From NCBI RefSeq assembly GCF_045037415.1, contig NZ_CP173438.1: a stretch of DNA of 64,000 nt; one strand, given 5' to 3'. Within the stretch, counting starts at the first letter, position 1, and every line of letters starts with the position of its first letter. The DNA is from Escherichia coli (GTDB lineage Bacteria > Pseudomonadota > Gammaproteobacteria > Enterobacterales > Enterobacteriaceae). Shown here one piece after another: positions 26,772 through 29,195 of the stretch. The position numbers and the translations under genes were made by a program. The notes beneath the pieces are model-generated. The model searched no databases and was not told the origin of the DNA. It saw only the letters and a program-made list of their open reading frames with translations.

Positions 26772-27518
26772 ATGAAAAAGGTTATTGCTGTTTCAGCGCT
26801 TGCTATGGCGGGCGTATTTTCAGCCCAGGCTCTGGCTGATGAGAACAAAACTGGCTTTTATGTGACTGGTAAAGCCGGTGCTTCAGTTGTGGCTCAGACT
26901 GACCAGCGCTTCCGTCAGGACTTGGGGGAGGATGTTTATAAGTATAAGGGCGGCGATAAGAACGATACTGTATTTGGTGAAGGCCTTGCGGTGGGCTATG
27001 ATTTTTATCAACATTACAATGTTCCTGTGCGCACGGAAGTGGAATTCTATGGCCGCGGAGCTGCGGACTCCCATTATACACTGGATACATGGCATTCTCC
27101 GATGGGGAATGGTGGTCGGGAAGACACACAGAACAGGCTCAGTGTGAATACCCTGATGGTGAACACGTATTATGATTTCAGAAACAGCAGTGCATTCACT
27201 CCATGGGTATCTGTTGGCCTAGGTTATGCACGAGTACATCATAAGGCGACATATACTGATACCTCCAGGAATGAATCTGGCGAGATAAGTGATATTTCTG
27301 AGTTACATTACTCGGGATATGATAACAATTTCGCATGGAGCATTGGGGCCGGTGTTCGCTATGACGTAACCCCGGATATCGCTCTTGACCTCAGCTATCG
27401 CTATCTGGATGCTGGTAAATCCTCCCTGTCTTACAAGGATGCAGAAGAGGATAAATATAAATCAGAAGTTGACGTTAAAAGTCACGACATCATGTTTGGT
27501 GTGACTTATAACTTCTGA
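26772..27518 (+). CDS. Outer-membrane beta-barrel protein of the Ail/OmpX/Tia-Hek type (putative adhesin/invasin)
   Basis: Signal peptide MKKVIAVSALAMAGVFSAQALA, alternating amphipathic strands, C-terminal ...FGVTYNF; start set at the Met with a properly spaced GGAG. Confidence 0.65.
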   Translation: MKKVIAVSALAMAGVFSAQALADENKTGFYVTGKAGASVVAQTDQRFRQDLGEDVYKYKGGDKNDTVFGEGLAVGYDFYQHYNVPVRTEVEFYGRGAADSHYTLDTWHSPMGNGGREDTQNRLSVNTLMVNTYYDFRNSSAFTPWVSVGLGYARVHHKATYTDTSRNESGEISDISELHYSGYDNNFAWSIGAGVRYDVTPDIALDLSYRYLDAGKSSLSYKDAEEDKYKSEVDVKSHDIMFGVTYNF

Positions 27519-27692
27519 CGACACTGCTCCTGAGCGATAATTACACATATTCAGTAATTAAGATATTTATATATCTTCTGCAACTAAACAGAAATACCCT
27601 GCAGTAATATATCGCAGGGTCATTTGTTTCACAGGAGATTTCTGGTTTTTATTATGTTATTCTCTTTATAATAATATTACCGATATATTCCG

Positions 27693-29195
27693 ATGAATAT
27701 CAGAAAACTGTTTTGTCCGGGCAACACACCCCAGATTTTATTGTTTTTATTCTTTTTTATTGTTTCTGTAATAACCACAATTGCATGCGGATACACTGAG
27801 AAGAATGCCACAGGAAATGTGCTGCTTCTGTTTCTCCTTCTTCTCCTTGCACACAGAAATACCCTCACATCCATTACAGCGCTGTTATTTCTGTTCTGTT
27901 GTGCACTGTATGCGCCTGCCGGTATGACGTACGGTAAAATCAACAACAGTTTTATTGTCGCGTTGTTGCAGACCACAACTGATGAGGCAGCGGAGTTTAC
28001 CGGGATGATTCCTGTTTATCATTTTCTGGTCAGTGCCGCGATTCTGGTATTCATGGTGATTTTCTGGCGGACACATCACCGTGGTCACCGTAACTGGCTG
28101 GCACTGCTGCTGTTCGTATTATGCTCAGTAAACAGCTGGCCGTTGCGGATGGTTAAAGGAACTGTTGTGGGGACAACTGACACATTGCGTGAAATGCAGC
28201 ATTATAAACAACTGAGTCAGCACGGGGCTGACAACTGGAAAATCCTGCCGGGAACACCGTTATATGACACGATTGTGATTGTCACTGGTGAGAGTGTGCG
28301 CAGGGATTATATGTCGGTATATGGCTATCCCGTGCCAACCACGCCGTGGCTGAATACAGCTCCCGGTTTATTTATTGACGGCTATACATCGGCAGCAGCC
28401 AGTACCGTACCTTCCCTGAGCCGGACACTGATTTATGACTATGAGCAGAACCCTGATTCCGGCAACAACGTGGTGGCGCTGGCAGCAAAAGCAGGATACA
28501 GCACATGGTGGATATCCAATCAGGGAAAACTGGGAGAGCATGACACACGCATCTCTGTTATTGCTTCTGATGCGGAGCATACCGTTTTCCTCAAGAAAGG
28601 CAGCTTCGCTTCCCGTAAAACGGATGACATGTTGTTGTTACAGGAAACAGAACGTGCGCTGGCGGATAAATCCTCTCCGAAGGTGATTTTCCTGCACATG
28701 ATTGGCTCTCATCCGAATCCGTGTGACCGACTTAACTCCTGGCCGAATTATTACCTGGAGCAGTATCCCCGAAAGATTGCCTGTTACCTCGCCAGCATCA
28801 GTAAACTGGATAACTTTCTCGGTCAGCTTGATGGTATCCTTCGCCGGCATTCCCGTCATTTCGTCATGCTTTACTTTTCTGACCATGGGCTGTCGGTCAG
28901 CGACAGTGCTAATCCTGTTCATCATGATGGTCATGTGCAGGGAGGCTACAGCGTTCCCCTGATTATTACCGCCAGTGACATCACGTCTCATCAGTCCGTC
29001 AGCAGAAAAATCAGTGCCCGTCATTTCGCAGGTATTTTTCAGTGGCTGACCGGCATTCGTACTGAAAATATACCGCCATTCAATCCGCTGACAGACGAAG
29101 ATAATGAACTCATTATGGTTTTTAACGGAGACAAGAATGTACCGACAGACAGTCTTGAGTCACAACCTCTGATTCTTCCGGGCAAGGGAAAATAA
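27693..29195 (+). CDS. Phosphoethanolamine transferase (EptA/YhbX-like, sulfatase-type domain with N-terminal membrane anchor)
   Basis: 500-aa ORF; hydrophobic N-terminal segments; TGESVRRDY and HMIGSHPNPCDR motifs characteristic of this family. Confidence 0.7.
   Translation: MNIRKLFCPGNTPQILLFLFFFIVSVITTIACGYTEKNATGNVLLLFLLLLLAHRNTLTSITALLFLFCCALYAPAGMTYGKINNSFIVALLQTTTDEAAEFTGMIPVYHFLVSAAILVFMVIFWRTHHRGHRNWLALLLFVLCSVNSWPLRMVKGTVVGTTDTLREMQHYKQLSQHGADNWKILPGTPLYDTIVIVTGESVRRDYMSVYGYPVPTTPWLNTAPGLFIDGYTSAAASTVPSLSRTLIYDYEQNPDSGNNVVALAAKAGYSTWWISNQGKLGEHDTRISVIASDAEHTVFLKKGSFASRKTDDMLLLQETERALADKSSPKVIFLHMIGSHPNPCDRLNSWPNYYLEQYPRKIACYLASISKLDNFLGQLDGILRRHSRHFVMLYFSDHGLSVSDSANPVHHDGHVQGGYSVPLIITASDITSHQSVSRKISARHFAGIFQWLTGIRTENIPPFNPLTDEDNELIMVFNGDKNVPTDSLESQPLILPGKGK

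Follow-up and report, generated by a model that had tools for sequence, protein, structure and literature searches.

A conserved module of tia and a YjgX-type phosphoethanolamine transferase gene near the integrase of a genomic island at selC in Escherichia coli

In a 64,000-nucleotide stretch of Escherichia coli DNA (contig NZ_CP173438.1; hereafter the window), the gene tia and an intact gene for a phosphoethanolamine (PEtN) transferase of the YjgX family form the integrase-proximal end of a genomic island at selC. Together with the remnant of an integrase gene (Δint) they make up a module of ~2.8 kb, which is conserved. Both genes are already known and annotated and the pair has been published, while the conservation of the module across loci is new here. 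We consider it probable that this selC module combines a Tia adhesin with a YjgX-type enzyme acting on an acceptor other than lipid A, and that the two genes are separate transcription units. As they stand, tia and the transferase gene are ordinary annotated island cargo. The mis-inference that is corrected here concerns colistin, as the sequence of the transferase offers no ground to call it a latent resistance gene.

The selC island and its tia-transferase module

Two co-directional open reading frames on the plus strand, at 26772-27518 and 27693-29195, were upheld at the coordinates reported earlier. The first one had been described in the earlier note as a Tia/Hek-like outer-membrane protein (OMP) gene, and this assignment holds beyond size alone. 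It is tia (26772..27518; RefSeq name Tia) and encodes an outer-membrane beta-barrel adhesin/invasin of 248 aa, of which 231 residues (93.1%) are the same in the prototype Tia of enterotoxigenic E. coli H10407 in a full-length, gap-free alignment. The reading frame can start at 26763 or 26772; RefSeq takes the ATG at 26772, which is preceded by a GGAG 9 nt upstream. A Pfam OMP_b-brl match spans residues 12-251 (E 7e-22), and the closest solved structures are Opa60 (E 5e-5) and NspA. The N-terminus consists of a signal peptide, MKKVIAVSALAMAGVFSAQALA, followed by DENK. By means of this signal peptide Tia would be exported and fold into a small outer-membrane beta-barrel. Adherence, invasion or heparan-sulfate binding, as expected of the Tia/Hek/Hra1 adhesin-invasins, has been published for H10407 Tia (as cited in PMC7371111). 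By analogy with this 93% identical protein the long loops of the window's Tia may mediate adherence and invasion.

The location of the island at selC, as the earlier note had it, was confirmed. The attachment site, tRNA-Sec (selC; 32525..32619, minus strand), was identified with ARAGORN, and yicJ, yicI and yicH lie on its far side. Next to it is the P4-type tyrosine integrase of the island (31036..32226, minus strand; NCBIfam NF007246, E 6.5e-94), followed by a gene for a tetratricopeptide-repeat (TPR) protein (29560..30633, minus strand), for which NCBIfam TPR matches are only weak. The TPR gene also adjoins the selC integrase in the annotation of strain 219, H10407 and AR_0013 and is missing from the pheV and pheU copies of the module; it thus belongs to the backbone of the selC island and stands outside the module. 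The left boundary of the conserved module is Δint (26366..26594, minus strand), a 3' end remnant of a P4-type integrase gene that RefSeq lists as an incomplete integrase with its N-terminus missing. Its positions 26366-26543 share 96-97% identity with the 3' end of the intact pheV and pheU integrases (sampled loci L010 and L012). A Δint remnant was also found 5' of the OMP gene in L011, L012, L022 and H10407. Further cargo of the window's island comprises a type I restriction-modification system, RhuM, MobI and IS elements.

The tia island of H10407 occupies the same selC site, and the integrase-TPR and Δint-tia parts are common to both islands: the integrase region is 98.5% identical at the nucleotide level, the TPR gene ~90% and the Δint-tia segment 91.8%. 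The islands differ between tia and the TPR gene, where H10407 carries leoC-leoB-leoA, which are absent from the window, together with a transferase of 557 aa that is of the YhbX type (65% identity to YhbX over 511 aa), whereas the window has the 500-aa YjgX-type enzyme. Directly behind the latter, tblastn detected what is left of a YhbX-type PEtN transferase gene, a decayed stretch of ~69 codons from its C-terminal end (29200..29406, plus strand). It matches residues 488-556 of the H10407 island transferase with 46% identity, two in-frame stops and an E-value of 8e-12, and residues 473-529 of K-12 YhbX match it likewise. DNA homology between the window and H10407 picks up again at 29230. From the relic one would predict an ancestral island in which tia, leoCBA and both transferase genes, of the YjgX and the YhbX type, were combined. 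The H10407 arrangement was present in 65 of 5426 complete E. coli genomes at ≥80% query coverage, and the 3-kb block of the window in 495 at the same coverage.

That the two genes are real and adjacent, as had been noticed before, was borne out; their pairing is not special to this island and represents a conserved, published module. The 3-kb block recurs with 100% identity in at least 11 E. coli strains with annotated chromosomes, where RefSeq names the products 'invasion outer membrane protein Tia' and 'phosphoethanolamine transferase'. Exact copies of each protein occur on hundreds of public contigs (754 for Tia). Publications on SE-PAI and GIselC17584/1 already describe the pair, as 'sulfatase orf-tia' (PMC7371111; PMC6174562). 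In SE-PAI (shiA-orf-tia-subAB2) and in GIselC17584/1 of LEE-negative STEC, the same sulfatase/phosphoethanolamine transferase ORF stands beside tia, in the latter as a 1503-bp coding sequence near the selC integrase (PMC6174562). Neither subAB2 nor shiA is annotated in the island of the window.

In all seven E. coli loci sampled that have the transferase gene in full length, a Tia-/Hek-like OMP gene, or its IS-cut remnant, lies directly 5' of it. These loci are at selC, pheV and pheU, and a decayed copy is found at leuX in K-12. An OMP gene also adjoins the transferase gene on three contigs on which the enzyme is ~57% identical. It was absent beside relatives of ≤52% identity, namely in pO104_H7 (52%), an Erwinia genome (49%) and [Enterobacter] lignolyticus (39%), and no OMP gene adjoined the relatives at 38-51% identity on metagenome contigs. 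Pairwise dN/dS values between alleles were mostly 0.13-0.26 for tia and for the transferase gene, the outliers being near-identical pairs only. Both genes form an old module that moves as a whole and is kept under purifying selection. The YjgX family is widespread and selectively maintained, and almost always lies beside a Tia-/Hek-type adhesin gene at tRNA islands.

A hairpin behind tia and a promoter-like site ahead of the transferase gene suggest two separate transcription units, although read-through may co-transcribe the genes. The hairpin (27596..27620, plus strand) is flanked by A- and T-runs and may act as a terminator; the RNA of 27585-27640 folds with -15.9 kcal/mol (z = -4.2), and none of 200 shuffled sequences folded as well. 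The promoter-like site (27628..27655, plus strand) lies 38 nt 5' of the transferase start and, with TTCACA-16-TATTAT (10/12 matches), is the best match in the region. A weaker one, TTTACC-18-TAAAAT (9/12), lies upstream of tia (26694..26723, plus strand). Both are matches to the consensus only, and sites of this kind were not more numerous in the region than expected from shuffling.

Identity and architecture of the transferase

The second reading frame (27693..29195, plus strand) encodes a protein of 500 aa with Pfam matches to Sulfatase (residues 193-446, E 9e-37) and EptA_B_N (residues 44-172, E 4e-5). The earlier note had called it an EptA/YhbX-like phosphoethanolamine transferase. The PEtN-transferase fold and intact catalytic residues agree with the enzyme class, but the clade is a different one: the gene is of the YjgX type, with 91.6% nucleotide identity to the K-12 pseudogene yjgX over the 1174 nt kept in K-12. 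K-12-derived and B strains accordingly gave matches at 78% coverage and ~91.7% nucleotide identity. Judged by its sequence, the transferase is the intact form of K-12 yjgX and a member of a widespread, uncharacterised family. The K-12 gene (KpLE2 region, at leuX with intB) has the same convergent placing beside a P4-type integrase, but the OMP gene ahead of it and its own first ~313 nt are gone and it adjoins IS2, while the copy in the window is intact. A full-length gene is present in 1447 of the 5426 complete E. coli genomes, which is about a quarter. The literature searched contained no experiments or biochemistry on a YjgX-family enzyme. Mentions of yjgX were confined to a defensin screen, where it was a false-positive control, and to its use as a neutral site for integration, and are uninformative as the K-12 allele is truncated.

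The nearest characterised relatives are OpgE and PptA. In BLASTP, OpgE (YbiP), the glucan PEtN transferase, showed 31% identity over 483 aa (E 2e-73), with residues 20-469 of the transferase aligned to 22-497 of OpgE, so that both domains are covered. An ORF of the gonococcal chromosome, the sole place matched there at E ≤ 1e-5, was 32% identical over 453 aa (E 1e-60). Its database name is just 'phosphoethanolamine transferase'; we take it to be PptA, as it is placed between murE and murF, where pptA (dca) lies. The match to YhbX was limited to the catalytic domain (30% over 306 aa, E 1e-27). In a neighbour-joining tree with 200 bootstraps, the YjgX family (support 87) was grouped with OpgE and PptA (77, moderate), which together form a branch separate from it. 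Shigella Lpt-O, an O-antigen PEtN transferase encoded on pSFxv_2 and labelled LTA-synthase-family protein in RefSeq, was considered as nearest relative and rejected, as it gave no significant BLASTP match.

A short membrane anchor, unlike that of the chromosomal Ept enzymes, had been attributed to the transferase. Five hydrophobic segments were identified instead (residues 15-33, 43-61, 58-76, 106-124 and 136-154), and the N-domain aligns with OpgE from residue 20; the membrane domain thus appears compact, not reduced. The AlphaFold model (pLDDT 89.8, pTM 0.81) matched full-length MCR-1 (9nww; 551 alignment columns, TM 0.59), NmEptA (5fgn) and the EcEptC domain, and predicts an MCR-1/EptA-like fold with a five-segment membrane domain and a periplasmic sulfatase-fold domain. 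A lack of catalytic residues had been named as evidence against the assignment, and all of them are present. Five of them (E200, T238, H340, D397 and H398) do not vary among 53 family members and the sixth, H411, is near-invariant; all align with the EptA motifs GET, TAT, GSH and SDHG.

These features are consistent with an enzyme that spans the inner membrane with five transmembrane segments and exposes an alkaline-phosphatase-fold domain to the periplasm. If it works like EptA and MCR-1, PEtN would move from phosphatidylethanolamine to Thr238, where E200, D397 and H398, together with H340 and H411, make up a putative zinc site. From there it would presumably be handed to a periplasmic or envelope acceptor.

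The acceptor of the transferase and its relation to Tia

Within the family, OpgE and PptA are the sister branch of the transferase, and EptA, EptB, EptC and MCR are distant from it, which makes lipid A an improbable acceptor. Likelier candidates are an envelope protein or a glycan, be it periplasmic glucan, LPS core or O-antigen sugar, as OpgE acts on periplasmic glucans and PptA on pilin (PMC10525099), although this acceptor class is suggested by relatives that are just ~31% identical. Moreover, acceptor specificity in the superfamily does not strictly follow phylogeny, as is seen in EptC of Campylobacter, which acts on lipid A, heptose, FlgG and glycans (PMC10525099).

The transferase could simply be a second OpgE that transfers PEtN onto osmoregulated periplasmic glucans, its link with tia being merely physical. 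OpgE is its best characterised match, shares its motifs and aligns over the membrane and the catalytic domain, and JGI annotators call some family members glucan phosphoethanolamine transferase. Nevertheless, we regard this as unlikely. The identity is just 31%, PptA of pathogenic Neisseria, whose target is type IV pilin, is equally close at 32%, and the branch of OpgE and PptA is separate from the YjgX family. In addition, opgE is already a core gene in E. coli, so that a redundant copy on an island would be of no obvious benefit.

A functional link between the two genes may also underlie their adjacency. The transferase would then place PEtN on Tia/Hek-family OMPs or another envelope protein during their passage through the periplasm, in the way PptA modifies pilin, or on a surface glycan that Tia needs, and such a coupling would give this enzyme family a new acceptor class in E. 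coli. The adjacency at four tRNA loci and in the ~57% identical relatives speaks for it, as does its persistence through OMP allele exchange: dS between Tia-type and Hek-type OMPs was 1.16, and that between the neighbouring transferases 0.23. In most islands the partner of the OMP gene is of the YjgX type; in H10407 the slot behind tia again ends in a PEtN transferase, there of the other, YhbX-type clade. PptA, one of the two closest characterised relatives, is protein-modifying, a porin of A. baumannii is reported to carry phosphocholine (PMC10434233), and in the core genome the pairing has an echo in ompX and opgE, which adjoin in K-12. However, tia and the transferase gene look separately transcribed, the transferase gene is kept where the OMP gene is IS-cut, and relatives of ≤52% identity do without an adjoining OMP gene, while genes just 175 bp apart should stay tightly linked by common descent in any case. 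The literature searched contained nothing relevant on phosphoethanolamine or other modification of Tia, Hek or Hra1. Weighing these points, we hold a functional coupling to be distinctly unlikely.

It had further been suggested that acquired transferases of this class can modify lipid A or core LPS and alter the sensitivity to cationic peptides and polymyxins. This was based on a clade to which the enzyme does not belong, and its sequence makes it unlikely that it modifies lipid A or confers polymyxin resistance. Explicitly, it would have to be an acquired EptA/MCR-like enzyme that adds PEtN to lipid A, Kdo or a heptose phosphate and lowers the sensitivity to polymyxins and cationic peptides. 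EptA/PmrC, EptB, EptC/CptA and MCR do share superfamily, fold, the five segments, the Thr nucleophile and the zinc ligands with it, CptA is its top NCBIfam match by name (E 4e-31), and the acceptor range in the superfamily can be broad. Yet identity to these enzymes was only 22-25% and confined to the catalytic domain (BLASTP; EptC 25%, E 5e-23; EptB 23%, E 8e-12; EcEptA 22% over 244 aa, E 3e-8), whereas the full-length relatives are OpgE and PptA. The transferase also scored far under the cut-offs of all NCBIfam lipid A, Kdo, heptose and MCR families, with 108 bits against 404 and 83 against 900 for the CptA models, 37.7 against 660 for the EptA equivalog model and 19-33 against 1075-1250 for the MCR models. 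Despite its full-length presence in 1447 genomes it is not reported as a colistin determinant in the literature searched. Knock-out and complementation of the truncated K-12 allele were without effect on killing by the defensin HNP-1 (PMC4808223), a result of little weight, as the K-12 gene is a pseudogene. Taken together, we judge this reading to be very improbable, and a YjgX-type enzyme with an acceptor other than lipid A remains the preferred one.

The possibility that the tia-transferase pair is a duplicate of the core pair ompX-opgE was considered as well and rejected. The match between Tia and OmpX, a small beta-barrel OMP, is marginal (E 0.011 over 25 aa), and the orientations differ, as opgE, a core gene, is convergent with ompX, while tia and the transferase gene are co-directional; beyond the coincidence itself, nothing supports a duplication.

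The gene pair near selC and its counterpart in H10407

Two ORFs on the same strand were found in the selC island, the first ending at 27518 and the second occupying 27693-29195 (500 aa). The mechanical ORF list places the start of the first at 26763; the RefSeq start is the ATG at 26772, which is preceded by GGAG 9 nt upstream and yields a protein of 248 aa. The gene for a TPR protein separates the second ORF from a P4-type integrase gene (31036-32226, minus strand; NCBIfam NF007246, E 6.5e-94), and the tRNA-Sec gene selC lies at 32525-32619 on the minus strand. A 3-kb block was matched at 100% identity by at least 11 E. 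coli strain chromosomes, in which the genes are annotated as 'invasion outer membrane protein Tia' and 'phosphoethanolamine transferase'. The exact Tia protein was present in 754 public contigs and the exact transferase in at least 1000, and dN/dS between allele pairs was mostly 0.13-0.26 for both genes alike. The side-by-side arrangement described in the earlier note was borne out: both are real, expressed-type genes, and they and their pairing were already known and annotated.

The first product matches Pfam OMP_b-brl (E 7e-22), carries a typical signal peptide (MKKVIAVSALAMAGVFSAQALA) ahead of DENK and finds its nearest solved structures in the neisserial Opa60 and NspA barrels. Comparison with Tia of the enterotoxigenic strain H10407, the prototype, gave 231 identical residues at 248 positions (93.1%). 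Judged by its sequence, the gene is tia itself, which goes beyond the size likeness first noticed; the earlier note was right about both the outer-membrane protein and the type of island.

The gene order of the H10407 island is selC-int-IS3-TPR-transferase-leoA-leoB-leoC-tia-Δint. DNA homology to the window was 91.8% over Δint-tia and 90-98.5% from the TPR gene through selC, whereas none was detected over 27522-29229. The H10407 transferase is a YhbX paralogue of 557 aa (65% identical to YhbX) with only ~27% identity to the window enzyme in BLASTP. Directly 3' of the intact YjgX-type gene, the window retains on the plus strand (29200-29406) the decayed remains of a YhbX-type phosphoethanolamine (PEtN) transferase gene, covering its final ~69 codons and containing two in-frame stops; in the equivalent place H10407 has the full 557-aa YhbX-type gene, preceded by leoCBA. 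In a simple model, an ancestor would have carried both transferases; the YjgX type would then have been lost in H10407, and leoCBA with the greater part of the YhbX-type gene in the window lineage. The H10407 arrangement is the rarer one (65 genomes versus 495 with that of the window).

A conserved module at tRNA islands

Seven E. coli loci containing a full-length transferase gene were sampled, at selC, pheV and pheU; in all seven, a Tia- or Hek-like outer-membrane protein (OMP) gene precedes it in the same orientation at a distance of ~150-175 bp, and in one of them the OMP gene is cut by IS629. Homology between the window and these loci extends from ~26366 to ~29184-29269, and therefore delimits a 2.8-kb module. 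Just upstream of the OMP gene, an integrase 3' remnant of ~180 bp was present in 5 of the 7 loci. It was seen in the window, where it lies at 26366-26594 on the minus strand, and in comparison loci L011, L012, L022 and L018. It matches the 3' end of the intact pheV/pheU integrases (L010, L012) at 96-97% identity, and this suggests that islands accreted in tandem and that a deletion then occurred. In pheV/pheU islands the remnant and the intact integrase form a direct repeat of ~179 bp flanking the pair.

Between Tia-type and Hek-type loci (window, L010, L011, L012 and L022), dS was 1.16 (about 1.1-1.2) for the OMP gene and ~0.23 for the transferase gene 175 bp away. This discordance implies that the OMP allele has been exchanged inside a conserved scaffold; the two genes differ in history. 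Pairing was kept in three contigs with a transferase of ~57% identity, their OMP being 48% identical where measured; OMP adjacency was absent in relatives with a transferase at 52% identity or less. The pair has been published for SE-PAI, whose core is described as 'sulfatase orf-tia' (PMC7371111), and as a CDS of GIselC17584/1; all tRNA islands analysed in the latter study carried a YjgX- or YhbX-type transferase (PMC6174562).

Other neighbourhoods were also recorded. In UPEC and APEC (L010, L021) the module comes directly after papG. A family branch that is ~50% identical and plasmid-borne (L003, plasmid pO104_H7, and L026) has thermonuclease (SNase) and DUF2569 genes as conserved neighbours and no adjoining OMP gene. 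In two metagenome contigs (L027, L028) a transferase of 38% identity lies 24 nt from a convergent pilus operon of the chaperone-usher type that includes an SCPU-domain subunit. The K-12 core genome (850450-852597) contains a second OMP/PEtN-transferase neighbourhood, in which opgE, whose product is the nearest characterised relative of the island transferase, and ompX, a small beta-barrel OMP gene, are convergent neighbours with stop codons 48 bp apart.

Clade, architecture and likely acceptor of the transferase

Pfam Sulfatase was matched at residues 193-446 (E 9e-37) and the EptA_B_N membrane domain weakly at 44-172, and a hydropathy scan placed five hydrophobic segments in residues 15-154. 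E200, T238, H340, D397 and H398 were invariant and H411 near-invariant in a 53-sequence family alignment; in EptA, EptB and EptC these positions correspond to the motifs GET, T(A)T, GSH and SDHG. An AlphaFold model built from this alignment was confident (pLDDT 89.8, pTM 0.81) and matched MCR-1 (9nww) and N. meningitidis EptA (5fgn) over both domains and EcEptC over the catalytic domain. The protein is therefore a complete PEtN-transferase-fold enzyme, catalytically equipped, with a compact five-segment domain without reduction in place of the 'short membrane anchor' of the earlier note.

BLASTP was run against K-12 paralogues, a gonococcal chromosome segment and the Shigella lpt-O plasmid. 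Both domains were matched by OpgE (31% identity over 483 aa, E 2e-73) and by the Neisseria ORF between murE and murF (32% over 453 aa, E 1e-60), which by its position is taken to be PptA. Only the catalytic domain was matched by YhbX (30%, 306 aa, E 1e-27), EptC (25%, 313 aa, E 5e-23), EptB (23%, 264 aa, E 8e-12) and EptA (22%, 244 aa, E 3e-8), and Lpt-O gave no match. In a bootstrapped neighbour-joining tree the YjgX family (87) grouped with OpgE and PptA (77), apart from YhbX, EptA, EptB and EptC. The 90% cluster with the gonococcal transferase also includes many 492-aa MurE proteins, which looks like a clustering artefact, perhaps of fused gene calls, and not homology.

The K-12 pseudogene yjgX, adjoining leuX and intB, shares 91.6% nucleotide identity with the window gene. 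Of 5426 complete E. coli genomes, 1447 have the gene at full length and 2731 have it in some form, making this a very common, conserved enzyme. A literature search for functional studies of the YjgX family found none, yjgX being mentioned solely in its truncated K-12 form, which served as a negative control.

We consider it probable that tia, encoding the known adhesin/invasin, adjoins a YjgX-family PEtN transferase whose Thr238 and zinc site would move PEtN from phosphatidylethanolamine to a glycan or envelope protein, not lipid A, the two genes forming an old, selectively maintained module. OpgE acts on periplasmic glucans and PptA on pilin and other periplasmic proteins (PMC10525099, a 2023 review); that the window enzyme is a second OpgE seems unlikely.

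Functional coupling of the transferase with Tia is quite improbable. It would fit a linkage that outlasts OMP allele exchange, the filling of the same slot in H10407 by a transferase of another clade, the close kinship with PptA and the adjacency of ompX and opgE in K-12. However, more distant relatives lack OMP adjacency, the literature searched reported none of Tia, Hek and Hra1 to be modified, and the transcription signals look separate. A hairpin with A- and T-run flanks (27596-27620; -15.9 kcal/mol, z = -4.2) follows tia, and downstream of it lies the region's best promoter-like site (27628-27655, 10/12 matches); tia and the transferase gene are for this reason predicted to be separate transcription units, with read-through possible.

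An effect on lipid A and polymyxin sensitivity, drawn in the earlier note from an 'EptA/YhbX-like' label that put the enzyme in the wrong clade, is unsupported and very unlikely, as OpgE and PptA are closer over both domains and every score against the curated NCBIfam lipid A, Kdo and heptose PEtN transferase models and all MCR families was far under cut-off.

Further cargo of the island

The TPR protein (357 aa; 29560-30633, minus strand) gave only weak TPR matches, among them one below cut-off to SctY, a type III secretion chaperone model (E 9e-6), and in strain 219, H10407 and AR_0013 its gene is kept beside the selC integrase. On the other side of the pair lies an IS1 copy with an internal stop (~25653-26350). 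Adjoining cargo on the minus strand (~18300-25400) comprises the R (3237 nt), S (21550-22836) and M (22836-24815) genes of a complete type I restriction-modification system and, from the ORF list, a RelB/DinJ-family antitoxin gene (24883-25389) without an annotated toxin partner. The island extends leftward beyond the window, its distal end lying outside. Inovirus Gp2-like genes and IS256 and IS21 fragments occur in the stretch made up of window positions 1-6500 and the left flank (L019), with an H-NS-family gene at ~2065-2505 of the window; further left, L019 carries a YeeP-type GTPase gene and DUF932/DUF905 backbone genes.
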